A stretch of DNA of 64,000 nt from Candidatus Shapirobacteria bacterium. GTDB taxonomy: Bacteria; Patescibacteriota; Microgenomatia; 0-14-0-10-38-17. The position numbers and the translations under genes were made by a program. Positions 3,049-63,954 of this stretch are shown here, piece by piece; the stretch's first letter is position 1, and every line of letters starts with the position of its first letter. The notes beneath the pieces were generated by a model. That model ran no database searches. It was given only the letters and a program-made list of their open reading frames with translations, and was not told the DNA's origin. Where the stretch lies: the NCBI GenBank assembly GCA_018052565.1, contig JAGPNC010000001.1:45512-109511 (forward strand), read 5' to 3'.

Positions 3049-4965
3049 ATGACCTCTTCTAGTGACTATACAGCCGACAAAATCCAAGTTTTAGAAGGAG
3101 TTGAACCGGTGCGCCTTAGACCGGGGATGTTTATCGGTTCCACCGACACCAAAGGGCTTCACCATCTCTTAACAGAAATCATCGATAACTCGATTGACGA
3201 AGCCCTTTCCGGTAATGCCCAAAATATTTGGGTTTACCTGCAAAAAGACGGCCAGGCCCGGGTAGTTGACGACGGCCGGGGCATTCCGGTAGAAAAGCAT
3301 CCCGGGCTGGGCATCTCTGCCTTGGAAGTAGCCATGACTCGTTTGCACGCCGGGGCTAAATTTCAAAAAGGCACTTATAAAGTTTCCGGCGGCCTACATG
3401 GGGTAGGAGCGAGCGCCGTCAATGCTCTTTCCCAAAAAATGCGCGTTGAAGTTCGTCGCAATGGCAAGCTTTATTATCAAGAATACCGCCGCGGCAAGCC
3501 ATTAGCGCCTGTTAAAGAAGCACCTTTTCCTCAAGACAACCTTCCTAAAACCGGCACCCAAACCATCCTCTTGCCCGATCCGCAAATTTTTGAAGACACC
3601 AATTTCTCCCAAAAAAGAGTTGAGCAATCACTAAGAATCCGGGCCTATCTTATCCCGGGAATTTTTATTCACTTCTTTGACGAAAGAGAGAACTACCAAA
3701 AGCACTTTTATTTTGAGGGTGGCATCCGTTCTCTTTTAAAGAAAACTAACCAGGACCATAAAAAAATCAGTCCCATAATTTATATCAGCAAAAAAGACGA
3801 GAAGCTAAGCTTAGAAGCAGAAATTGCCTTCCAATACATTGACGATATTGAAGAGAATATCCAATCATTTGTCAATGTTATCCCCACTCCTGATGAAGGC
3901 ACCCATGTCGCCGGCTTTCGCTCTGGCCTCACCCGGGTAATTAATGATTACGCTCTTGAAAAAGGTCTTGTTAAAGAAGGAGAAAAATTCAGCGGCGAAG
4001 ACACAAAAGAAGGGCTGACAGCCATTATTTATGTCAAAATGCCCTCAGAAAAAATCCAATTTGAGTCGCAGACAAAAACAAAATTAAATAATAAAGAAGT
4101 GGGGATCTTTATCAACCAAATTGTCCGGGAAGAGCTAACCACTTTCTTGGAGGAACACCCTTCGGAAGGGCGTAATATTGTCGAGAAAATTAAAATTGGC
4201 CTTCAGGCGCGAATGGCCGCCAAGGCGGCTCGCCAGGCAGTATTACGAAAAAGCGCCTTAGGCAGCGGCTCCCTGCCGGGAAAGCTTGCCGATTGTCAGG
4301 TAAAAAACCCCGAGTTGGCCGAGCTTTTTATTGTTGAAGGCGATTCTGCCGGTGGCTCGGCCAAACAAGGACGCGACCGACGATTCCAGGCTATTTTTCC
4401 CCTAAGAGGAAAGCTCTTAAACACCGAGCAGGCGCGTTTAGATAAAATTATTAAGTTTGAAGAACTTAAGAATTTGGTTACCGTTCTTGGGATGGGTATT
4501 GGCGAAACTCAAAGCCCGGAAAAACTTCGTTACCAAAAGGTAATCATTATGACCGATGCCGACGTTGATGGCGAGCATATCGCCACCTTGCTTTTAACTT
4601 TTTTTTATCGCCATCTTCCTTATATCGTCGAAAATGGTTACCTTTATCTTGCCCAGCCCCCTCTTTACAAAATCAGCGCCAGCGGGAAAGACCATTATGT
4701 TTATTCCGACATTGAAAGAGAAGAGCTTTTGAAAAGCCTTGATGGCCAAAAAGTAAGAATCCAACGTTACAAGGGGTTGGGAGAAATGAATCCCGACCAA
4801 CTTTGGCAAACAACGATGGATCCAAATGTCAGAATCCTGAAAAAAATCACCATTGAGGATGCCCAAGAAGCCGACCATACTTTTGATATGCTCTTAGGCA
4901 AGGAAGTCCTGCCTCGCCGGCGTTTTATACAAGCTAATGCCAAACTGGCAGAGCTTGACGTTTAA
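3049..4965 (+). CDS. gyrB: DNA gyrase subunit B
   Basis: GHKL ATPase motifs (LHHLLTEIIDNSIDEA). Toprim EGDSAGGS. PLRGKLLN. Short form without the E. coli insertion. Lies upstream of gyrA. Confidence 0.9.
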   Translation: MTSSSDYTADKIQVLEGVEPVRLRPGMFIGSTDTKGLHHLLTEIIDNSIDEALSGNAQNIWVYLQKDGQARVVDDGRGIPVEKHPGLGISALEVAMTRLHAGAKFQKGTYKVSGGLHGVGASAVNALSQKMRVEVRRNGKLYYQEYRRGKPLAPVKEAPFPQDNLPKTGTQTILLPDPQIFEDTNFSQKRVEQSLRIRAYLIPGIFIHFFDERENYQKHFYFEGGIRSLLKKTNQDHKKISPIIYISKKDEKLSLEAEIAFQYIDDIEENIQSFVNVIPTPDEGTHVAGFRSGLTRVINDYALEKGLVKEGEKFSGEDTKEGLTAIIYVKMPSEKIQFESQTKTKLNNKEVGIFINQIVREELTTFLEEHPSEGRNIVEKIKIGLQARMAAKAARQAVLRKSALGSGSLPGKLADCQVKNPELAELFIVEGDSAGGSAKQGRDRRFQAIFPLRGKLLNTEQARLDKIIKFEELKNLVTVLGMGIGETQSPEKLRYQKVIIMTDADVDGEHIATLLLTFFYRHLPYIVENGYLYLAQPPLYKISASGKDHYVYSDIEREELLKSLDGQKVRIQRYKGLGEMNPDQLWQTTMDPNVRILKKITIEDAQEADHTFDMLLGKEVLPRRRFIQANAKLAELDV

Positions 4966-5009
4966 TTTCTAAAAAAGAACAGATTATTTTTAACTAATTG
5001 ATTTTTAAT

Positions 5010-5066
5010 AAGTAGGGTTTTGGATATTTTTTAGGTCAGTTAGGGCAATTAGAATAATTTCTAACT
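5010..5066. repeat. Partial, right-arm-only copy of the palindromic MITE-like repeat
   Basis: GGGTTTTGGATATTTTTTAGGTCAGTTAGGGCAATTAGAATAATTTCTAAC matches the right arm of copies A, C, D and E. Confidence 0.55.
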
Positions 5067-5161
5067 TGTAATAGACAATAAGCTTGCGCTGCACAAAATA
5101 TATCCCAAACGCTCAGCCCTTCTCTTGTTTAAGCCCTTTACTCATGTTAAACTAACCTTCT

Positions 5162-13483: not shown

Positions 13484-14245
13484 CTAAAAGTTGCTGAAAA
13501 CGCTTTGAACATCATCATGCTCTTCGAGGCGGGAAAGAAACTCCGTTACTTTCTCTCTCTTTTGAGGATCGCTAATCATTAATGGTACTTGAGGGAGAAA
13601 GACTAACGATGAGGAAAAAACTGAAAATCCTTTTTCTTCAAGATCGGCCACGGTTCTGGCTAAAGATTCTTTCGCCACTGTCAACCTTATTTTCCCCTCT
13701 TCTTCCTCAACATCTTCGACACCGGGGAAATCCATCAGGAACAAAACCTGCTCTTCAGTTTTCTCTTCTTTCTTGGGAGCCAAAAAAATTTCCCCTACTT
13801 GGCGGAAATTATAAGAAACAGCACCGGGAGAAGCCAACGACCCGCCACTTTTTTCAAAAATATTTTTAAGCTCTTGGGTAGTCCGTTGTCGATTATCTGT
13901 GACCGCATTCACAATTACCGCCACCCCCTCGGGGCCATAGCCCTCAAATTGTAACGAAGAGAAAGAGCCGTCCTTTTTCCCCCCGGCCCGGCTAATGGCT
14001 CGTTCAATATTACTCTTGGGCATATCAGCTCCCCGTGCTTGCTCGATTGCCAAACGCAGGCGAAAGTTAGCATTGGGGTCTGTTTCCCCTCCCCCCTCAA
14101 TAACGGCCACGCTAATTGCCCGCGAGAGCTTGGAAAAAACCTGCCCGCGCTGTTTGTCCTTCGTTTCTTTTTGGTGTTTTATAGTTGCCCACTTTGAATG
14201 ACCAGACACGGCTTGAAAAAATTTAAAAATTATTACTAAATGCAA
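13484..14245 (-). CDS. yebC: YebC/PmpR family DNA-binding transcriptional regulator
   Basis: GHSKWATIKHQK...NANFRLRLAIEQARGADMPKSNIERAI are signature motifs. Confidence 0.85.
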   Translation of the reverse strand: MHLVIIFKFFQAVSGHSKWATIKHQKETKDKQRGQVFSKLSRAISVAVIEGGGETDPNANFRLRLAIEQARGADMPKSNIERAISRAGGKKDGSFSSLQFEGYGPEGVAVIVNAVTDNRQRTTQELKNIFEKSGGSLASPGAVSYNFRQVGEIFLAPKKEEKTEEQVLFLMDFPGVEDVEEEEGKIRLTVAKESLARTVADLEEKGFSVFSSSLVFLPQVPLMISDPQKREKVTEFLSRLEEHDDVQSVFSNF

Positions 14246-14340
14246 ATCTCAAAATGCAAAATGAAAAAGAAAAAATGTAAAAAGAATTTTTAAGTTTTAC
14301 ATTTTCATTTTGACTTTTGCATTTTGATTTTTTGATTTCA
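14238..14340. repeat. Oligo-A/T-tract palindrome (hairpin-forming) intergenic element
   Basis: Left arm AAATGCAAATCTCAAAATGCAAAATGAAAAAGAAAAAATGTAAAA. Right arm TTTTACATTTTCATTTTGACTTTTGCATTTTGATTTTTTGATTTC. Short loop. Confidence 0.65.
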
Positions 14341-14448
14341 AATAATTAATGCAAACTCCAATTAAGTAAGCAGAAATATACCGTTTATTTTTTTACTTAA
14401 CTGTTAAACGTCTATTATTTTACCACCAACCAACCTTGTTGGCAAAAA

Positions 14449-22516: not shown

Positions 22517-22716
22517 AAATGCAAAACTTAAAAATTAAAAAGCAAAATGAAAGAGAAAAAATGCAAAATTAAAAGTCAGCAACTCGTAACATGTTAAAAA
22601 CAAAGATGGAACTACTCTCTAATTACAAGTTACCAGTTATCGGTTATAACTTGCTAGTCTTTTTACATTTTAAATTTTCATTTTTACTTTTGAGATTTGC
22701 ATTTCGATCTAACTAC
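22517..22716. repeat. Oligo-A/T-tract inverted repeat pair with a 90-bp spacer (upstream of rseP)
   Basis: AAAATGCAAAACTTAAAAATTAAAAAGCAAAATGAAAGAGAAAAAATGCAAAATTAAAAGTC ... TTTTTACATTTTAAATTTTCATTTTTACTTTTGAGATTTGCATTTCG. Confidence 0.55.
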
Positions 22717-35494: not shown

Positions 35495-35640
35495 TGAATT
35501 ATTCTAATTATCCTAATTAATCTAATTTCCAAAAGAAATCCCAAATGCTAAAATCCCAAATCCAAAATGGTTTCTTAACCTTCTTTTTTTTAGGGTTTTG
35601 GTTTTGGGTATTTTTTAGGTCAATTAAAATAATTTGAAAC
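35495..35640. repeat. Palindromic MITE-like intergenic repeat, copy C (between mreB and mreC)
   Basis: GAATTATTCTAATTATCCTAATTAATCTAATTTCC...GGTTTTGGGTATTTTTTAGGTCAATTAAAATAATTTG. Confidence 0.65.
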
Positions 35641-36915: not shown

Positions 36916-37008
36916 GAAAATTCAAAAGTTAAAATTCAAAATTAAAACAGAAACTTTTAACTTTTTACTTGGAATTTTACATTTTCATTTTTGAATTTTG
37001 AATTTTTC
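36916..37008. repeat. Oligo-A/T-tract palindrome upstream of tRNA-Ala
   Basis: AAAATTCAAAAGTTAAAATTCAAAATTAAAAC ... TTTTACATTTTCATTTTTGAATTTTGAATTTTTC. Confidence 0.65.
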
Positions 37009-37052
37009 ATCATACTTAATACCTAATACTTAATACTTGATACTTTTTTTCT

Positions 37053-52238: not shown

Positions 52239-52371
52239 GTGGCTGGGACATAATCCCAAGTATTGTTGCAAATTTAACCCAACGCCATCCTGAACCTAAT
52301 ACAGAATCTGTCCTGTTGTCAAAGCGGCGATCCCGACTTTCGTTAGGATGATGAATCATGTCCTATCCGCT
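52239..52371. mobile_element. Small TIR element (MITE-like), copy 1, with 9-bp target-site duplication
   Basis: Left TIR AGTGGCTGGGACATAAT and degenerate right TIR ATCATGTCCTATCCGCT. Flanked by direct repeats TATAATAAG at 52232-52240 and 52372-52380. Confidence 0.6.
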
Positions 52372-52391
52372 ATAATAAGCATAATTTAAAA

Positions 52392-54343: not shown

Positions 54344-55477
54344 GTGAACAATATGATTTATTCAAAACCATCGCTAACAGAAATTAGGACACACCAACTA
54401 AAAGCGCAATCAGTTGACCTTCATACTTACACAAGGGAGGCAAGCCTAAGAAGAATTCCCGATACTCGAATCATAAAAGAAGGAGATAATGAATTCATTG
54501 AGTTTTCATTTAATGGTTTTAAAGTTATAACTGACACTTCCGAAGAAAGTGTCGAGTTTTCCGAAGAAGGAGACCCCCAAAATAAATATTTTCGTATTCG
54601 AAAATTTTTAGTGAATTTTCAAGGAAAAGATGTTGATCTTCTTGATAATGAAGTTGCTAAACTCTGTGATCACTTTATGTCTTTCCGAGTAAGTAGAATT
54701 GGCTCACATTTTAATAGACAGGTAGTGGTTGTTAACAATGAAGGTCAAGAAATTAAAAGACTTAAGAGCAATATCGTAATTTATGTTCCAACAAACGAAG
54801 AGAGGACAGACTACGATGCAGAAGAAATGCTATATCACTGGGTACATGAGTTCGGTCACGCTCTCGATCTGATTGACGTAGTAAGAAGATTCCGCAGGGT
54901 AAGTACTAAAGGAGAAAAGTATGAACGAGTAAGCAACGAAGAATTAAATGATGTCAAAGCAGAAAGAGACGCCCATGCAATTGGATTAAAAATCCTTAGG
55001 TGGATTCGCAGATTATATGGACCACAACCAAGTATTTCCGAAGAACGATATATCAATAACGTGGTCGAACCGGCATTACACTCCCGCCAGTTAGTTAGAA
55101 TGGACTTTCGTTCTGCTTATTCTAATCAAGACCGAGCATTATTCAGAGAAGAAGAAATAGAAATAAGAAAGATGGGTATAGCCGAAGAGGTAGATAGAGA
55201 AAGATTCCAAATAAAATTTAGGCGAGATAAAAATATTTCTTTACTATCAGAAAGACTTGGAGAAAGAGCACAAGAAATGTATGATTCTTTAGTCCAGGCA
55301 TGGGTAGATGAAAATATCGATAAGATGGTAAAATTAAATCAAATTTTTGCTAAAAGCGGCTTAGAAGAACATAAAACAAGAGAAGAATTGATTATGGACT
55401 TAGAGCTTGATTACCACTCGGCAATTTTAAGAAAACACGGAATACCATGGGAACAATTTTCAAGTTTATTAAAATAG
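54344..55477 (+). CDS. Uncharacterised HEXXH zinc-metallopeptidase-like protein (zincin motif HEFGH)
   Basis: YHWVHEFGHALD is the only recognisable motif. AT-rich (about 33% GC) with atypical codon usage. Lies immediately after tRNA-Pro. Confidence 0.5.
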   Translation: MNNMIYSKPSLTEIRTHQLKAQSVDLHTYTREASLRRIPDTRIIKEGDNEFIEFSFNGFKVITDTSEESVEFSEEGDPQNKYFRIRKFLVNFQGKDVDLLDNEVAKLCDHFMSFRVSRIGSHFNRQVVVVNNEGQEIKRLKSNIVIYVPTNEERTDYDAEEMLYHWVHEFGHALDLIDVVRRFRRVSTKGEKYERVSNEELNDVKAERDAHAIGLKILRWIRRLYGPQPSISEERYINNVVEPALHSRQLVRMDFRSAYSNQDRALFREEEIEIRKMGIAEEVDRERFQIKFRRDKNISLLSERLGERAQEMYDSLVQAWVDENIDKMVKLNQIFAKSGLEEHKTREELIMDLELDYHSAILRKHGIPWEQFSSLLK

Positions 55478-57657: not shown

Positions 57658-57842
57658 CAAATTATTCTGATTAACCTAATTATTCTGAATAAATCCCAAA
57701 TGCCAATCCGCCAGCTGAGCCCGTACTATTTCGCTACGGGGCTGGCGGATCAGATAATTTTCATTAGTTAATTAATTTTGGAGTTGTGGCTTGGATTTTT
57801 TTAGGTCAATTAGAATAATTTAGAATAATTAGAACAATTTTT
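57658..57842. repeat. Palindromic MITE-like intergenic repeat, copy D, with a central GC hairpin
   Basis: AAATTATTCTGATTAACCTAATTATTCTGAATAAATCCCAAATGCC, then hairpin ATCCGCCAGCTGAGCCCGTAC...GTACGGGGCTGGCGGAT, then GGATTTTTTTAGGTCAATTAGAATAATTTAGAATAATTAGAAC. Confidence 0.7.
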
Positions 57843-57987
57843 TAAATTTTCTCGCGTTTCAAATCTCCGCACCATACGATTGAAACTATTTAAATAGTTA
57901 AATCCGGGGGCGAGAAGATAAATTTCTTGGGGAAAGATAGCATTACCCCTACTCTAACAGATTATTTCCCAATCGTAGGGAAAAAAT

Positions 57988-59310: not shown

Positions 59311-61047
59311 AACTTCAATCCCCAAAAGACCCAATCCTTCTTCTAAAATTTTTACCGTTAAAGCAGTTAAACCCAGACGAAGGTTCTCTCTTTCTTCGCT
59401 TTCTCCCAAGATTCGGTCTTGATTATAAAAATAATTATACTTTTGGGCTAATTGGTATAAAAAATCAGCCACGAGGTTTGGCGAAAATTTCTTCGCCGCT
59501 TCAAAAATTACTTCATCCCAATGGCAGGAAAACCTAATAATTGCTAATTCTTCTTCATTTAGGCTAATTTCCGGCAATTTTTTAAAATTTTTCTTTCCGC
59601 TTCTCTTGAGAACAGAAAAACATCGCGCCGCTGTATACTGAAGATAAGGGCCGGAATTTCCTGTCAAGGTCAGCATTTTCTCCCAATTAAAAACAACATC
59701 TCTACGAGGATTCTGCTTTAAGTCATTATATTTAACTGCTCCTATGCCAATGGCCTGAACTGCTCTTTTCTGGTCTTTTGGAGAAAGAGTTTTCACTATT
59801 CCTGCTTCTTGGGTTAATTTCTCTGCCTTTCTAATTGCTTCCTTCAAAACTTCTTCTAAATAAATTGTCTTGCCGCGCCGGGTAGAGAATTTGCCCTCTA
59901 TCCCTAAAATCATTCCATGAGACACGTGAACCACATTTTCTACTGAGCAATATCCTAAAAGCGAGGCCACCGAAAAAAGTTGCTGAAAATAAAAAGTTTG
60001 GTCTACTCCCACCTCATAGATAATTAGGTAGGGTTGCCAGCGCTTCTGCCGATATTTAATCGTGGCTAAATCGCGCAAAAGATAGGTCGTCGCCCCATCT
60101 GATTTAACAAGCATCGCCGGTGTTTCCTGGCGGGGAAGAAAAATTACCTTTGCTCCCTGACTCTCGCGAAGCAGCCCCTTTTTCTGAGCATCTGAAATTA
60201 CTGTCTTCATTTTATCTTGGTAAAAGCTTTCCCCCAAAGAAACATCAAAAGAAACTCCCAACATTTTATAAATCCGATCAAACTCTCTCGTTGATACATC
60301 CACAATTGCCTGCCAAATTACCCTTGCTTCCGGATCGCCCGCCTCAAGCTTTTTAAACCATTTTCTTGCCTCTTTTTTAAGACTTGGCTTTTTTTCTGCT
60401 TCCTGATGAAAAGCAACATAAAGCTTTTCTAGGTCGCTAATGGTTAGATTTTTTAAAGTTTCTTCTCCGCCCTTTTCCTTCCGACGCTTAACGCAGCCCT
60501 GAGGCAAGTCTTGCCGTTTAACCTGGAAAAGTAGCACTCCAAATTGCGTTCCCCAATCCCCTAAGTGATTATCGCCAATCACCTGATAGCCCAAAAAATA
60601 ATAAAGATTATAAAGCGCTTGACCAATAATCGTCGATCGTAAATGCCCTACACCAAAGGGTTTGGCAATATTAGGCGAAGAATAGTCAATAATCACTATT
60701 TTCCCTTTCCCTATTTTAGAAATTGGCCTTTTTTCTAAAGAAATAATTTCCTCGTTTGCCTTCAAAAGAAAATCTGGTTTTAAATAAAAATTAATAAAGC
60801 CGGGAGAGACAACCTTAATTTCCTCAACAAACGATAAGGGTGCCAAGAGATTAATTTTTTCCTTAAATTCCCGGGCAAAACGAAGGGGATTTTTGCCTAA
60901 TTTCTTTCCGGCCACCATTGCCACGTTGGTAGCATAATCACCATGGGAAGAAAGCTGGGGCGCCTCTAGGGAGAAATTGACTTCTGATATGCCAATAGAG
61001 GCTAATGTTTTCCTAATTGCGCTGGCTAATTTTTCTCGCGCTTCCAT
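59296..61047 (-). CDS. argS: Arginyl-tRNA synthetase
   Basis: N-terminal Arg-add domain. HIGH-like PNIAKPFGVGHLRSTIIG. DALR anticodon-binding C-terminus. Confidence 0.9.
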   Translation of the reverse strand: MEAREKLASAIRKTLASIGISEVNFSLEAPQLSSHGDYATNVAMVAGKKLGKNPLRFAREFKEKINLLAPLSFVEEIKVVSPGFINFYLKPDFLLKANEEIISLEKRPISKIGKGKIVIIDYSSPNIAKPFGVGHLRSTIIGQALYNLYYFLGYQVIGDNHLGDWGTQFGVLLFQVKRQDLPQGCVKRRKEKGGEETLKNLTISDLEKLYVAFHQEAEKKPSLKKEARKWFKKLEAGDPEARVIWQAIVDVSTREFDRIYKMLGVSFDVSLGESFYQDKMKTVISDAQKKGLLRESQGAKVIFLPRQETPAMLVKSDGATTYLLRDLATIKYRQKRWQPYLIIYEVGVDQTFYFQQLFSVASLLGYCSVENVVHVSHGMILGIEGKFSTRRGKTIYLEEVLKEAIRKAEKLTQEAGIVKTLSPKDQKRAVQAIGIGAVKYNDLKQNPRRDVVFNWEKMLTLTGNSGPYLQYTAARCFSVLKRSGKKNFKKLPEISLNEEELAIIRFSCHWDEVIFEAAKKFSPNLVADFLYQLAQKYNYFYNQDRILGESEERENLRLGLTALTVKILEEGLGLLGIEVLRKM

Positions 61048-61318
61048 AACGAAAATATTTTAAATTACTAATCTGTTAATTAAATTGTTATCGGTAACTC
61101 AATCGTCATCCTGATGAAAATTAGGACCTGTCTTTGAGTGCTTCTGTCATTCTAACAGAAGTTAGAATCTATTTTCCTATTGACCTTAAACAGGTTCCGA
61201 ATCCTGCCCCGCACTGCACCATGCGTTACGGGGCCCCGCCGGCAGGTGTAGGTGAACTCAAAATGACGAAATACGAATCATTTATCTATGACTCTTGCAG
61301 TTTTTATACTTAATACCT

Positions 61319-61441
61319 AGTGGCTGGGACATAATTCTTTTTTTGTCATTCTGAAGGAGCGTGAGCGACTGAAGAATCTCATACAAGAGGATTCTCCCCC
61401 CGCCCAAGGCGGGCCCAGAATGACGTTTATGTTCCAGCCTC
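61319..61441. mobile_element. Small TIR element (MITE-like), copy 2, with about 10-bp target-site duplication
   Basis: TIRs AGTGGCTGGGACATAAT and TTTATGTTCCAGCCTC. Flanked by direct repeats (C)TTAATACCTA. Interior carries the inverted repeat GTCATTCTG...CAGAATGAC and a CCCGCCCAAGGCGGG hairpin. Confidence 0.6.
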
Positions 61442-61484
61442 TTAATACCTAATACATAATACTAAATACATCTCTATTCTACTA

Positions 61485-62405
61485 CTACTCTTCTACCCAC
61501 CAGCGCCGGCCGTCGCTGACCACCACCACATCACCATCTTGATCGGTCCGCTTTATCAACAGACCTTCTTTTTTAAGCTGCTCTCTTAGAATCTGATGAG
61601 GATGCCCCCAGGGATTTTTCCCTACGGAAATAATCGCTAGAAGAGGTTGCGCCATTCCTAAAAACTCGTCCGTAAAAGCATATTTTGAACCATGATGAGC
61701 TACTTTTAAAACTTCAGCCGGCGAAAAAGAAGTTGTGGCCAAAATTTCCGGCTGAATCCGGCTGTCAGCATCGCCGGTCAAAAGCAAATCAAATTTACCA
61801 AAAGAAATCCTAGCCACTAAAGAAAAATCATTTAAGGAAGCGTCTGGGGCTAAGACTTGATCTACTAAGATATCCCCTGATCGATAAAGATCGGTTTTCA
61901 CAACACTGATGGCTGATAGTTTTTCAAAGAACCAATCTTTTTGGGGCCAAAGAAATAAAAAATTTATCCCATCGAGGGAAATTTTATCCCCCTGCCAAGG
62001 AATTATTAATTTTGTCTTGCCCCTACTAACTAAATCCGATAGTTGACTAAATAATTTGTTTTCTCTTACTAAAGGGCTTTTAACAAAATAGCTTGCTCGG
62101 TATCTTTCTATAACCGAAGCAAGGCCACCAAAATGATCTTTTTCCGGATGAGTTAAAATTACCATTTCCAAGCGACGGTCCCAAAAGGGCATGTATTTGC
62201 CCAGACAAGTTAAAACTGCTTCATTCTCTCCACCATCTACGAGAATCTGGCTTTCCCCTCGCGTTAATAAAATCGCATCACCCTGTCCTACATTACAAAA
62301 AATTACCCGTAAATTATCATCCGGCTGCTGCCAAAGAAAAAGAAAAACTACTCCAAAAATAATTAGCGCTAAGGTAGGCAATAATTTCCGTGGTGTTAGT
62401 TCCAT
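61485..62405 (-). CDS. comEC: ComEC/Rec2 C-terminal metallo-beta-lactamase domain protein, separate ORF with its own signal anchor
   Basis: MBL motifs VIFCNVGQGDAILL, HPEKDHFGG, VAHHGSKYA. Start reset to the ATG at 62405 (MELTPRK... then a TM). The 39 codons upstream in the track ORF run through a repeat element. Confidence 0.7.
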   Translation of the reverse strand: MELTPRKLLPTLALIIFGVVFLFLWQQPDDNLRVIFCNVGQGDAILLTRGESQILVDGGENEAVLTCLGKYMPFWDRRLEMVILTHPEKDHFGGLASVIERYRASYFVKSPLVRENKLFSQLSDLVSRGKTKLIIPWQGDKISLDGINFLFLWPQKDWFFEKLSAISVVKTDLYRSGDILVDQVLAPDASLNDFSLVARISFGKFDLLLTGDADSRIQPEILATTSFSPAEVLKVAHHGSKYAFTDEFLGMAQPLLAIISVGKNPWGHPHQILREQLKKEGLLIKRTDQDGDVVVVSDGRRWWVEE

Positions 62406-62420
62406 ATTCTTTATATTTTT

Positions 62421-62714
62421 AGTGACTGGGGCATAATTCGTTATCATAACCCCGCCGGTAGCGGGGTAAATTATTCTAATTATTCTAATTAACCGAATTT
62501 CTAAATAAATCCCAAATACCAAACCCCAACCCGCCCGGGGCGGATTATTTTTAGTTGATTCTAATTTTGGGAATTGGGATTTGGGTGTTCTTTAGGTCAA
62601 TTAGAATAATTAGAGCAATTAGAATAATTTTTAACCTTTTTTGACCCTAAATTTAATTTAGGATAACGTTGAATTAAATTTACAATGGCATTGGGAATTA
62701 TGTTCCAGCCACTT
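62421..62714. mobile_element. Composite TIR element, copy 3, carrying a nested palindromic MITE-like repeat, with about 10-bp TSD
   Basis: TIRs AGTGACTGGGGCATAAT and ATTATGTTCCAGCCACT. Flanked by direct repeats TTATATTTTT. Interior carries the hairpin CCCCGCCGGTAGCGGGG and the 170-bp palindromic repeat at 62468-62636. Confidence 0.6.
62468..62636. repeat. Palindromic MITE-like intergenic repeat, copy E (nested in TIR element copy 3, between the comEC halves)
   Basis: AAATTATTCTAATTATTCTAATTAACCGAATTTCTAAATAAATCCCAAATACC...CCCGCCCGGGGCGG...GGGTGTTCTTTAGGTCAATTAGAATAATTAGAGCAATTAGAATAATTTTTAACC. Confidence 0.7.
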
Positions 62715-62721
62715 TATATTT

Positions 62722-63954
62722 TTAATACCAAATTTTTGGCCTTTTAAAAATCACCGTTGCCCAAAAACCAAAATAACCTATCAATAGCCACCAGGGCAGG
62801 GAAAAAGAAAAGAAAGGCAAAATATGACCCCAAAAGCTAACTCCCTCCACAAAAATCTTACTTGGCAAAAAAACAAGCCAAGAAAAAGGTTGAGCCAAAA
62901 ATGGCAAAAAGGGGCCAATAATTATCAAAATCATCCCCAAAAGCATAATCGGCGAAATAAGCCAAAGCAGAGTGGCGTTGGCTAAAAAAGAAAACGGCGA
63001 AAACTGGCCAAAAGAAATTAGCAAAAGCGGGGTGGTAAAAATCTGCGCCGCTAAAGTGGTCAATAAATCATCTTTAAAAGAACCAAAAGTCGGCAACCAA
63101 GAGAAAAAATTTCCCAAACGGTTTTTAAAAAAAATAATGCCGGCGCTGGAAGCAAAAGAAAGTTGAAAGCCAAGGTCAAAGATCATCCCCGGATCAAATA
63201 GGGCCAGCAAAACTCCTGCCAAAGCCAAGCCGCGCCAGCTTTCCTTCTGGCGGCCGAAAAAAGTGCCACCAATAGAAAAGCTAGCCATTATCGCCGCCCG
63301 AAGTAAAGGAGGTTCTGCTCCACACAGGAAAACATAAAACCAAATTGCTGGCAGGGTTAAAAGAAGGGCCCGGCGACGATTAAAAAATCGGTTCAGAAGA
63401 GGCAAAACAAATGAACTTACCAAAACGACATTTGTCCCCGAGGCAACCACCACATGAAGCATCCCCGTTTTAACTAAATTTTGATAAAAGTCTGAGGGGA
63501 GGGTGCTTTTAACCCCCAAAAGCACCCCTGACACTAGGGAGGCTGTTGGCTCCGGCAAAAGGCTTTCAAAAAAAAGCACCACTTTTTGCCGAAGGGAAAA
63601 AATAGTTCGGCCAAAGCCCCTCGCCGCTGAAGGGTTCAGTAAATTGACCGAGGGATAGTTCAACCAAAGTTCTTTCTTGCCATCTTTTGTCAGCGATTGC
63701 TCTACTTTGCCGACAATCTCTACCCGATCCCCATAATGAAGAACTGGCTCTCTTGCTGTTTTAACCTTAAGCCCTTCAAGACTGAATGTCTGAGTCTGGC
63801 TAAAGGATTGCGGTTCTTTTTTTAAAACACCCTCAATTTTTACTTCCTGCCCTATTAATTCTTCTCTTGGGAAAGAAGTTGTTTTCTGCCAGCGGTAAAA
63901 CCAAAGACTGCCTAACGCGAAAAGAAAAAAAAGATAAGAGAAAAACCTTTTCAC
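62722..63954 (-). CDS. comEC: ComEC/Rec2 N-terminal part (OB/DUF4131 plus polytopic competence channel domain)
   Basis: N-terminal TM plus OB-like region. Competence-domain signature GVLLGVKSTLPSDFYQNLVKTGMLHVVVASGTNV. Many TM segments. No MBL domain in this ORF. Confidence 0.7.
   Translation of the reverse strand: MKRFFSYLFFLFALGSLWFYRWQKTTSFPREELIGQEVKIEGVLKKEPQSFSQTQTFSLEGLKVKTAREPVLHYGDRVEIVGKVEQSLTKDGKKELWLNYPSVNLLNPSAARGFGRTIFSLRQKVVLFFESLLPEPTASLVSGVLLGVKSTLPSDFYQNLVKTGMLHVVVASGTNVVLVSSFVLPLLNRFFNRRRALLLTLPAIWFYVFLCGAEPPLLRAAIMASFSIGGTFFGRQKESWRGLALAGVLLALFDPGMIFDLGFQLSFASSAGIIFFKNRLGNFFSWLPTFGSFKDDLLTTLAAQIFTTPLLLISFGQFSPFSFLANATLLWLISPIMLLGMILIIIGPFLPFLAQPFSWLVFLPSKIFVEGVSFWGHILPFFSFSLPWWLLIGYFGFWATVIFKRPKIWY

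Follow-up and report, generated by a model that had tools for sequence, protein, structure and literature searches.

Among the closest described counterparts of the locus reported here is the single-chain ComEC/Rec2 of B. subtilis, Moorella and the cryo-EM structure of ComEC (PMC13539106), in which the DUF4131, Competence and Lactamase_B domains follow one another in one polypeptide. Its topology is TM10-CH1-TM11, with TM11 lying peripherally after the cytoplasmic helix that follows TM10, and a flexible linker together with an OB contact keeps its metallo-beta-lactamase (MBL) domain in place (PMC13539106). The MBL domain is extracytoplasmic and the nuclease is required for transformation (PMC8579336); the motif described for it is H598-x-D600-x-D602-H603 (PMC12455585). 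In Streptococcus pneumoniae, a separately encoded membrane nuclease, EndA, acts beside ComEC on the non-transported strand at the outer face (PMC8579336). For Patescibacteria (CPR), the passage on ComEC in Méheust 2019 (PMC6744442) already describes ComEC without MBL fusion and reports the fusion in only six CPR genomes, and surveys that score CPR ComEC as nuclease-less underlie the question of second-strand degradation in CPR (PMC8579336). In a Saccharibacterium, which belongs to a different CPR lineage from ours, comEC is needed for transformation (PMC10633639).

In the window, i.e., the whole 64-kb stretch of Candidatus Shapirobacteria DNA that was analysed, the parts of ComEC are distributed over two genes:

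62722-63954, minus strand: comEC channel subunit gene, 410 aa with a GTG start, from the ORF and its domain matches
62406-62721, minus strand: intergenic spacer between the two comEC genes, 316 nt
61485-62405, minus strand: ComEC-type MBL nuclease subunit gene, 306 aa, ATG at 62405
62331-62393, minus strand: predicted N-terminal membrane anchor of the MBL subunit, residues 5-25, from a confident model helix and the homologue alignment
62133-62150, minus strand: MBL metal-binding motif H86-P-E-K-D90-H91 (H-x-[E/D]-x-D-H), from the homologue alignment
62406-62522, minus strand: spurious N-terminal extensions of the MBL ORF, starting at TTG 62522 (345 aa) or at ATG 62447 (the 320-aa NCBI call)

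The channel protein is identical to an NCBI entry named ComEC/Rec2 family from Candidatus Shapirobacteria. It starts with a single TM helix, which is followed by a divergent OB/DUF4131 region and then by the Competence domain (PF03772; 173.5 bits, E 7.4e-51, profile positions 2-262 of 270). It scores 76.6 bits with TIGR00360, against a cut-off of 36.5; DUF4131 (PF13567) is sub-threshold at 23.7 bits (cut-off 31.6), and a PF13567 match is precomputed for close homologues. Channel residues 121-350 align with residues 208-435 of the solved full-length ComEC 30bt_A, and the MBL ORF, whose only Pfam domain match is Lactamase_B, aligns with residues 508-794 of the same protein, TM helix included (E 2e-31). 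Because the full-length ComEC model TIGR00361 is covered over positions 109-369 by the channel ORF and over 423-663 by the MBL ORF, the two are colinear halves of ComEC. Their scores with this model, 78.3 bits (channel) and 102.3 bits (MBL), both fall short of the equivalog cut-off of 190 bits set for a one-polypeptide ComEC, and a stop codon and a frame change lie between the ORFs. The ORF list, Pfam and the TIGR00361 coverage thus confirm the initial annotation of a channel ORF and a separate, MBL-only ORF. The gap that it placed between them exists as well; its size, given as 200 bp, was measured to the over-extended TTG start at 62522 and is 316 nt to the conserved MBL start. Like single-chain ComEC, the locus has the Competence-Lactamase_B order (preceded by a putative DUF4131 region), the H-x-D/E-x-D-H motif type, comEA as a gene neighbour, and the same TM helix leading into what is predicted to be an extracytoplasmic MBL domain. 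Unlike it, the chain is interrupted in the presumed cytoplasmic loop that leads to the last TM helix, which makes the nuclease a subunit of its own, and the OB region is preceded by only one TM helix.

The AF2 model of the MBL subunit (pLDDT 88) finds its best fold match in the ComEC beta-lactamase-like domain 9ic4 (E 1.7e-23, TM 0.82), and D43, H86, D90, H91, D212, H237, H238 and H268 are invariant in the alignment of MBL homologues. With its metal-binding residues, preceding TM helix and ComEC fold, the ORF is of the ComEC type. That it carries an N-terminal TM of its own, as had been proposed, was borne out by a predicted helix at residues 5-25 that is conserved in 22 of 22 aligned homologues. 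This helix aligns residue for residue with the TM helix preceding the MBL domain in fused ComECs and in the solved 801-aa ComEC, its counterpart in 30bt_A being residues 508-530, and the anchor is the equivalent of the last TM helix (TM11) of fused ComEC rather than a re-acquired one. The ORF 61485-62522 on the minus strand contains the internal ATG at 62405 that yields the 306-aa product, and the N-termini of the homologues align at MELTPRK. The extensions from TTG 62522 and ATG 62447 are element-derived artefacts, because they are encoded by the mobile element occupying the spacer, are absent from the homologues, and start from an ATG which, where the element brings it into the related lineage L095, does not lie in frame; the earlier suspicion that the long N-terminus is translated repeat was correct. 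For annotation, the ATG at 62405, which is preceded by no Shine-Dalgarno-like sequence, is preferable to the element-derived starts.

In a survey of 80 species-representative genomes, all 39 Patescibacteria-type loci were unfused. The channel gene lay directly upstream of the MBL gene in 24 of them and further upstream in 5, and none was present within 3 kb in the remaining 10; 10 further loci from other phyla had an MBL ORF only and lacked a channel gene within 3 kb. Fused genes numbered 31 and came from records titled Chloroflexota, Bacillota, Acidobacteriota or similar and, in one case, 'uncultured bacterium', and the nearest fused relatives of the Patescibacteria nuclease in the sample were in records titled Chloroflexota. 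Several titles of split loci (binchicken MAGs, 'uncultured Gammaproteobacteria' and the like) look unreliable, and the taxon was assigned there by similarity and synteny. The channel-to-MBL distance in the other split loci is mostly between -34 and +36 nt. Homologues of the MBL ORF number more than 2000, and the best 120 of these are all 226-325 aa long. Judged from these sequences, the two-gene comEC appears to be the normal and old arrangement of Patescibacteria. It corresponds to the lineage-wide trait described in the ComEC passage of PMC6744442 and goes beyond that passage in that the MBL domain comes from an adjacent, often overlapping gene in 24 of the 39 Patescibacteria-type loci sampled. 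The new point is that the "missing" CPR nuclease is usually the next gene, which is stated in no paper searched; an explicit split or two-gene ComEC in CPR was likewise not found in the literature searched, the incomplete coverage of which makes this weak evidence of novelty. A possible three-gene ComEC in Gottesmanbacteria (L012) was discarded, the ORF upstream of its 267-aa Competence ORF having no detectable OB similarity (E 0.21).

The spacer of the Shapirobacteria locus is occupied by a repeat element with further copies in the window:

62422-62711, minus strand: non-coding MITE-like TIR element, copy 3, 290 bp, with TIRs at 62695-62711 and 62422-62439
62712-62724, minus strand: upstream copy of the direct repeat TAAAAATATAAAG, a putative target-site duplication that holds the TAA stop of the channel gene
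62409-62421, minus strand: downstream copy of TAAAAATATAAAG, ending 3 nt before the MBL ATG
62468-62642, no strand assigned: nested palindromic repeat inside copy 3, with a GC hairpin at its centre (62531-62543) and arms made up of AATTATTCT-like units
61321-61440, no strand assigned: TIR element copy 2, between the MBL stop and argS
52240-52372, plus strand: TIR element copy 1, un-nested, intergenic, 133 bp, with a 9-bp duplication TATAATAAG

The TIRs of copy 3, TGGCTGGAACATAATTC (62711 to 62695) and GAATTATGCCCCAGTCAC (62439 to 62422), are 17-18 nt long with 14 of 17 positions matching, and the exact 13-nt direct repeat TAAAAATATAAAG abuts both of their outer ends. The 13-mer alone is not rare in this AT-rich sequence; what matters is that it adjoins each of the TIR ends with nothing in between. 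In the 64-kb window the TIR core is present 5 times against 0.23 expected, and none of 100 shuffles reached 5. Together with the palindrome at 62468-62642, this confirms the TIR element with a nested palindromic repeat that had been reported between the ORFs. The host element occurs un-nested as copy 1 and in L095, and further intergenic members of the palindrome family lie at 2664-2840, 35496-35637 and 57659-57850, with an incomplete one at 5004-5081. L001 and L095 have no element at the site of copy 2 but a spacer of 23 nt, and the element thereby combines the TIRs, target-site duplication and presence/absence polymorphism of a MITE. It resembles bacterial MITEs and REP-like repeats in being short and non-coding, with TIRs, target duplications, several intergenic copies, nesting and hairpin potential; unlike typical MITEs, it has 9-13 nt duplications and lacks an identified autonomous partner, no autonomous element or transposase with the same TIRs being found in the 64-kb window. 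The flanking duplications all abut the TIRs and vary from 13 nt (copy 3) through 11 nt (copy 2) to 9 nt (copy 1), a variability atypical for a MITE. As in Piscirickettsia salmonis, a mobile element is associated with comEC; unlike the interrupted coding sequence described there (PMC12955456), the element here lies between two pre-existing genes and nothing is interrupted.

Two histories had been offered in the initial annotation, one in which the insertion split a single-chain comEC, the MBL half then evolving a new start codon and signal anchor, and one in which an ancestral split was followed by insertion into the spacer. The element does sit exactly at the domain boundary, flanked by a duplication, and the closest relatives (77-82% aa identity) carry it at the same junction; even so, we give the splitting of comEC by the element hardly any chance, since it is refuted by the empty site, the relatives and the TM11-like anchor. 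When the element and one flanking repeat are removed in silico, the reconstructed empty site reads ...TGG TAT TAA AAATATAAAGAAT ATG GAA... (predicted element-free junction ...TGGTATTAAAAATATAAAGAATATGGAA...), and the TAA stop and the +1 frame change persist. The same two genes are found in element-free relatives at 40-56% identity and in Patescibacteria generally, and the anchor has its homologue in the TM helix that leads into the MBL domain of fused ComEC. In relatives without the element the two genes usually overlap by 1-34 nt (by 8-23 nt in L003-L011), and the comEA-channel-MBL-argS synteny is conserved around the split, which supports the ancestral split with later insertion. The element arrived after the split and broke neither gene, and the locus is an ordinary lineage trait plus a MITE in the intergenic spacer. 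A split shared by relatives that lack the repeat, with an independently conserved MBL start, had been named beforehand as the sign of an ancestral split unrelated to the element; the comparison of comEC architecture revealed this pattern, the split being general in Patescibacteria-type genomes, with the qualification that the closest relatives carry the element. The exact empty site predicted for copy 3 was found in none of the recovered relatives. The equidistant lineage L094 was considered as an empty site and set aside, having a different spacer of ~115 nt without TIRs and very low coverage. Because no exact empty site was recovered and the L094 spacer differs, a single old insertion and repeated insertion at the junction cannot be told apart. 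Decay of the locus into a pseudogene with loss of competence, or an assembly or frameshift artefact, is also highly improbable. Genes broken by mobile elements often decay, and transposable elements disrupt comEC in Piscirickettsia salmonis (PMC12955456); here, however, the ORFs are full length, the catalytic residues are invariant and the same architecture recurs in dozens of independent assemblies. Between the element-bearing lineages (dS ~0.9), the MBL gene has a dN/dS of 0.11 and the channel gene one of 0.14 (range 0.11-0.15), and both comEC genes are under purifying selection in these lineages.

It is more conceivable, and still very unlikely, that the MBL ORF encodes an independent membrane hydrolase, a beta-lactamase or phosphodiesterase outside DNA uptake that adjoins comEC incidentally. 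Functions of this kind have been proposed for CPR MBL-fold proteins, which PMC10459063 treats as multifunctional or as resistance enzymes without bringing up competence, and the loci without a channel gene within 3 kb, 10 of Patescibacteria type and 10 from other phyla, would fit such a function. The second-best fold match, phosphorylcholine esterase Pce, could be read in the same way, but the genuine ComEC domain, too, has Pce as its nearest neighbour (PMC12455585), and in both sequence and fold the top matches are to C-terminal domains of ComEC. Colinearity of the ORF with ComEC extends to TM11, gene order and start/stop overlap are conserved in most loci, and the class B beta-lactamase model NF049846 (blaAHM) gives only 63.7 bits against a cut-off of 590. 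We also consider it unlikely, though somewhat less so, that the element was co-opted and retained as a regulatory module, either as a promoter of the MBL gene or as a hairpin setting the ratio of the two products. The element has been kept at the junction across lineages separated by dS ~0.9, its transcript would be very strongly structured (-103 kcal/mol, z = -6.8), and a promoter-like match, TTTACC-16-TATGAT at 62470-62443, is directed into the MBL gene. The promoter-like and terminator-like consensus matches in the element are, however, only weak ones in AT-rich DNA (11 found vs 5.4 +/- 2.3 expected), the element interior is wholly different between lineages, most relatives lack the element, and an Rfam scan of 61000-62800 matched no known RNA family. 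A similarity to plant miRNA precursors in that scan was sub-threshold and was dismissed as generic AT-rich hairpin likeness.

The explanation that we consider very probable is an ordinary two-gene CPR ComEC with a later MITE insertion into its spacer, both genes remaining intact and selected. The first gene would encode the membrane channel, in which a single N-terminal TM helix is followed by the OB region and the Competence domain, and the second a type-II anchored nuclease in which the TM11-equivalent helix precedes an extracytoplasmic MBL domain. The break in the polypeptide would fall behind the last channel helix, in the cytoplasmic loop that leads to TM11. Most likely the products of the two genes reassemble in the membrane, where the channel could pass one DNA strand and the MBL subunit anchored at its outer mouth could degrade the other, as in single-chain ComEC. 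A separately encoded membrane nuclease that acts beside ComEC on the non-transported strand at the outer face recalls EndA; unlike the MBL subunit, EndA is not MBL-fold and is unrelated to the ComEC C-terminal domain, and the likeness is functional only. The non-autonomous TIR element would have entered the short spacer between the stop of the first gene and the start of the second, duplicating its target, either in an ancestor common to this Shapirobacteria subclade or by repeated insertion at one A-rich site, and the palindromic repeat would have landed inside it later in this genome. The insertion would have lengthened the spacer from ~13 nt to 316 nt, abolished any translational coupling and created the false upstream starts. 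The comEC junction tolerates MITEs and whole inserted genes, and therefore the products would need no translational coupling. We further hypothesize that ComEC is probably a two-subunit machine throughout Patescibacteria, with a nuclease that is separately translated, anchored by TM11 and usually encoded by the next, overlapping gene.

At this locus the insertion has little consequence, as the competence genes are intact and the repeat is harmless in the spacer. Surveys that score CPR ComEC as nuclease-less overlook a domain that is usually in the next gene, and censuses of ComEC domains should therefore count adjacent MBL genes. If the two-subunit arrangement holds, the nuclease of ComEC is able to act in trans, and fission or fusion occurs naturally in the TM10-TM11 loop. 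One very large clade would then have an answer to how the strand that is not transported is degraded when ComEC lacks a C-terminal domain. Structural or biochemical work could also take the naturally split ComEC as a ready design for expressing channel and nuclease separately.

The same element family lies at the same comEC junction in L001, L093 and L095, homology with L095 extending into both element ends, and the family was seen only in this Shapirobacteria subclade. The spacer gave no match in a distant blastn against plasmids. A TIR-like match at 54781 lies inside a coding ORF and was attributed to chance. When metagenomes were scanned with the TIR pattern TGGCTGGRACATAATYC, 120 contigs matched, each of them once; the matches were mostly unrelated and uninformative on the spread of the element or on a partner; L162, the only one with an inverted partner, was unconvincing. 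An unrelated conserved feature of 60 nt, which does not represent a tRNA, recurs in about 26 of the 120 contigs.

The comEC locus of the window is a standard Patescibacteria two-gene ComEC with a later MITE-like insertion, nested repeat included, at the intergenic junction. ORF, domain and repeat analyses confirmed the arrangement described in the initial annotation, i.e., a channel ORF and a metallo-beta-lactamase (MBL)-only ORF separated by a repeat element with terminal inverted repeats (TIRs) that itself contains a nested repeat. The features concerned are:

62722-63954, minus strand: channel ORF, GTG start, 410 aa (ORF listing)
61485-62522, minus strand: MBL ORF in its longest form, TTG start, 345 aa; the internal ATG at 62405 gives 306 aa
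62422-62711: TIR element copy 3, 290 bp, in the comEC spacer; imperfect TIRs and an exact 13-nt direct repeat abutting both ends
62468-62642: nested repeat in copy 3, a palindrome with arms of AATTATTCT-like units
52240-52372: TIR element copy 1, 133 bp, flanking 9-bp duplication TATAATAAG
61321-61440: TIR element copy 2, between the MBL stop and argS
2664-2840, 35496-35637, 57659-57850 and, partial, 5004-5081: further intergenic copies of the AATTATTCT-type nested repeat

In Pfam, the channel ORF carries the Competence domain (E 7.4e-51) and a sub-threshold DUF4131 match, and MBL is the sole domain of the second ORF. The two match separate segments (109-369 and 423-663) of the NCBIfam full-length ComEC model TIGR00361 (663 positions), each scoring under its equivalog cut-off of 190 bits, and are therefore colinear halves of a single ComEC. 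A 'ComEC/Rec2 family' protein at NCBI, from a Candidatus Shapirobacteria MAG (110.9-kb contig), has the same sequence as the channel ORF product. The upstream MBL starts, TTG 62522 and ATG 62447, the latter giving the 320-aa NCBI call P0001, both lie within the TIR element. Homologue N-termini align from MELTPRK onwards, and the orthologue in the element-bearing relative L095 is called at 306 aa, its element-borne ATG being out of frame; the MBL start is therefore 62405, and the longer N-terminus is a repeat-derived artefact, as initially suspected. No Shine-Dalgarno-like sequence precedes this ATG. The spacer noted earlier is real, but it measures 316 nt from the channel TAA to ATG 62405, the 200 bp first given having been counted up to the TTG of the over-extended form.

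In minus-strand orientation, the spacer opens with TAAAAATATAAAG abutting TGGCTGGAACATAATTC and closes with GAATTATGCCCCAGTCAC abutting TAAAAATATAAAG, after which come AAT and the ATG. Five occurrences of the TIR core were counted in the window versus 0.23 expected, and the hits define three elements, all of them intergenic; copy 3 is longer than the others because of the second repeat nested inside it. The predicted fold of the spacer transcript is very stable (-103 kcal/mol, z = -6.8), and no Rfam family was matched above threshold. In the AT-rich sequence of the element, matches to promoter and terminator consensuses are weak; promoter-like sites number 11 against 5.4 +/- 2.3 expected.

Two histories had been proposed, either that the element split an ancestral comEC whose MBL half re-acquired a start and an anchor, or that the split is ancestral and the element arrived later in the spacer. 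When the element and one flanking repeat are removed in silico, the junction reads ...TGG TAT TAA AAATATAAAGAAT ATG GAA..., so that the TAA still terminates the channel ORF, with the MBL ATG following 13 nt later in a different frame. The comparison with relatives was decisive. Shapirobacteria CG09-type contigs (MBL protein 56% identical) have the same two ORFs without any repeat, the Competence ORF ending at 4013 and the MBL ORF starting at 4001, a 13-nt overlap. In further Microgenomates and Patescibacteria contigs the two ORFs overlap by 23, 8 and 8 nt or, in one case, stand 51 nt apart, and the gene order leuS-comEA-channel-MBL-argS is common to most of these contigs. The element thus did not split the gene, and the ancestral split is the reading supported.

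The nearest relatives (77-82% amino-acid identity) have the same TIR family at this junction, un-nested and about 140 bp long in L095, with a different nested palindrome of GCTTGA-like units in L001 and L093, and with the AATTATTCT type in the window. In blastn of the window against L095, homology runs into both element ends, and in the equidistant L094, of very low coverage, the spacer is a different one of ~115 nt without TIRs. At the copy 2 site, L001 and L095 have a spacer of 23 nt; the family therefore is or was mobile. Copy 3 may go back to a single old insertion or to recurrent insertion into an A-rich target; under either history it is younger than the comEC split.

The anchor of the MBL half was not re-acquired. 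In an alignment of the window's two concatenated proteins with seven fused ComECs, the break falls in the loop that follows the last channel helix and leads to a K/R-flanked TM helix, which directly precedes the conserved P-D-x-K-L-x-V-x-F-x-D-V-G-Q-G-D segment, and KLLPTLALIIFGVVFLFLW of the MBL ORF lines up with this pre-MBL helix. Residues 121-350 of the channel ORF correspond to 208-435 of the solved 801-aa ComEC chain 30bt_A, and residues 6-305 of the MBL ORF to 508-794 (E 2e-31), including the TM helix. By cryo-EM, ComEC has 11 TM helices, of which TM10 and TM11 are joined through a short cytoplasmic helix and lie peripheral to the channel, and an MBL domain held by a small OB-fold contact and otherwise mobile on a flexible linker (PMC13539106). 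Given these alignments and this topology, the MBL ORF comprises TM11 plus the nuclease domain, and its anchor is inherited. The basic R6 and K7 ahead of the helix fit an N-in, C-out orientation with the domain outside the membrane, where the ComEC MBL domain has been placed (PMC8579336).

The MBL gene appears intact. Invariant metal-binding or catalytic positions in a 22-sequence alignment are D43; H86, D90 and H91 (H-x-E/D-x-D-H); D212; H237 and H238; and H268, and the motif is of the type found in Moorella ComEC, H598-x-D600-x-D602-H603 (PMC12455585). The AlphaFold2 model (pLDDT 88.4, pTM 0.86) has a helix at 5-25 followed by the MBL fold; in the PDB it most resembles the ComEC beta-lactamase-like domain 9ic4 (E 1.7e-23, TM 0.82 on target), followed by the esterase Pce, also reported as the neighbour of the genuine ComEC domain (PMC12455585). 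Comparing the window with the element-bearing L001 and L095, the MBL gene gave a dN/dS of 0.11 and the channel gene one of 0.14 (dS ~0.9); purifying selection has continued on both genes with the element present.

A search with the MBL ORF returned 2049 homologues, the best 120 of which are all 226-325 aa, and channel homologues are mostly 350-530 aa and have no MBL domain. An alignment of 22 MBL-only proteins, run against one genome per GTDB species, returned 80 loci, which were sorted with HMMs made from channel and MBL homologues. A separate channel ORF lies directly upstream in 24 of the 80 loci and 0.7-2.5 kb upstream, with other genes between, in five; ten Patescibacteria-type loci lack a channel gene within 3 kb, ten loci of other phyla have the MBL ORF alone, and 31 encode both domains in a single ORF. 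The fused loci carry the titles Chloroflexota, Dehalococcoidia, Limnocylindria, Bacillota, Acidobacteriota, Gemmatimonadaceae or similar, with one 'uncultured bacterium'. Fusion is absent from all 39 Patescibacteria-type loci, with the caveat on titles that several of those given to 'binchicken' MAGs (Gammaproteobacteria, Pseudomonadales, Clostridia) sit on the loci most similar to the Shapirobacteria query, some sharing its argS synteny; these titles are considered unreliable. In split loci the MBL start mostly lies at -34 to +36 nt from the channel stop, with 4-nt (ATGA-type) and 8-nt overlaps common.

The COG system has long kept the two ComEC halves as separate COGs, and annotation pipelines already label some short MBL proteins ComEC. 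Méheust et al. described a CPR ComEC family without the MBL fusion, which they reported in only six CPR genomes (PMC6744442). Pimentel and Zhang distinguished the domain profiles DCL, DC, CL and C and deduced that Lactamase_B was gained and lost repeatedly, the words 'separate' and 'adjacent' being absent from their text (PMC6299819); Silale et al. left open the fate of the non-transported strand where ComEC lacks the C-terminal domain (PMC8579336), and competence goes unmentioned in a paper on CPR MBL-fold genes (PMC10459063). The two-gene architecture is thus implicitly known, and in the literature searched we found no statement that the Patescibacteria nuclease usually comes from an adjacent, often overlapping gene. 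The significance lies in this general two-subunit reading of ComEC and not in the window locus itself, where the element-split interpretation fails although the features are real.

Several loci showed further peculiarities. 'Uncultured Gammaproteobacteria' or 'Pseudomonadales' titles accompany the most Shapirobacteria-like split comEC (L013, L014, L016, L017, L019, L023, L025, L030, L053), some of these loci showing the Microgenomates argS synteny, and are probably wrong or unreliable. Whole genes lie between channel and MBL in five Patescibacteria-type genomes (L021:1658-2914, L016:2052-2890, L068:1933-2848, L029:496-2986, L031:2262-2959), e.g., a 418-aa ORF in a Levybacteria-titled MAG and a ~268-aa opposite-strand ORF in L068, so that co-translation of the halves is not necessary. 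Short Competence ORFs of ~265-285 aa, in the Gottesmanbacteria MAG L012 (217-1787) and in L013, L014, L037 and L045, lack the OB region because their start corresponds to window residue 126; in L012, the 255-aa membrane ORF that overlaps on the upstream side was not detectably similar to the OB part (E 0.21). Pyrinomonadaceae contigs (Acidobacteriota; L066:2884-6307, L083:2914-5660) have two co-oriented stand-alone ComEC-like MBL ORFs at a distance of ~0.4-1.1 kb from each other, and no channel gene lies less than 3 kb away.

The TIR search pattern also matched a conserved 60-nt feature (TGGCTGGRACATAATYC ... GAATCATGTTCGATCCG) located in the same flank of many gut-metagenome contigs (L099, L101, L102 and about 23 further loci); ARAGORN found no tRNA in it, and it is probably unrelated to the TIR element. 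The spacer between the MBL stop and argS (61048-61484) is 437 nt in the window versus 23 nt in L001 and L095, and besides copy 2 it holds more GC-rich hairpins, e.g., at ~61210-61260. Long AT-rich palindromes occupy many intergenic spacers (1796-1946, 14238-14343, 22517-22703, 36917-37013 and others), their arms being degenerate tandem 7-9-nt units of AAAAGTN and NACTTTT types. They are built like the AATTATTCT-type repeat of the comEC spacer and the GCTTGA-type repeat of L001, and such arm-periodic intergenic hairpins look like a general class in these genomes.
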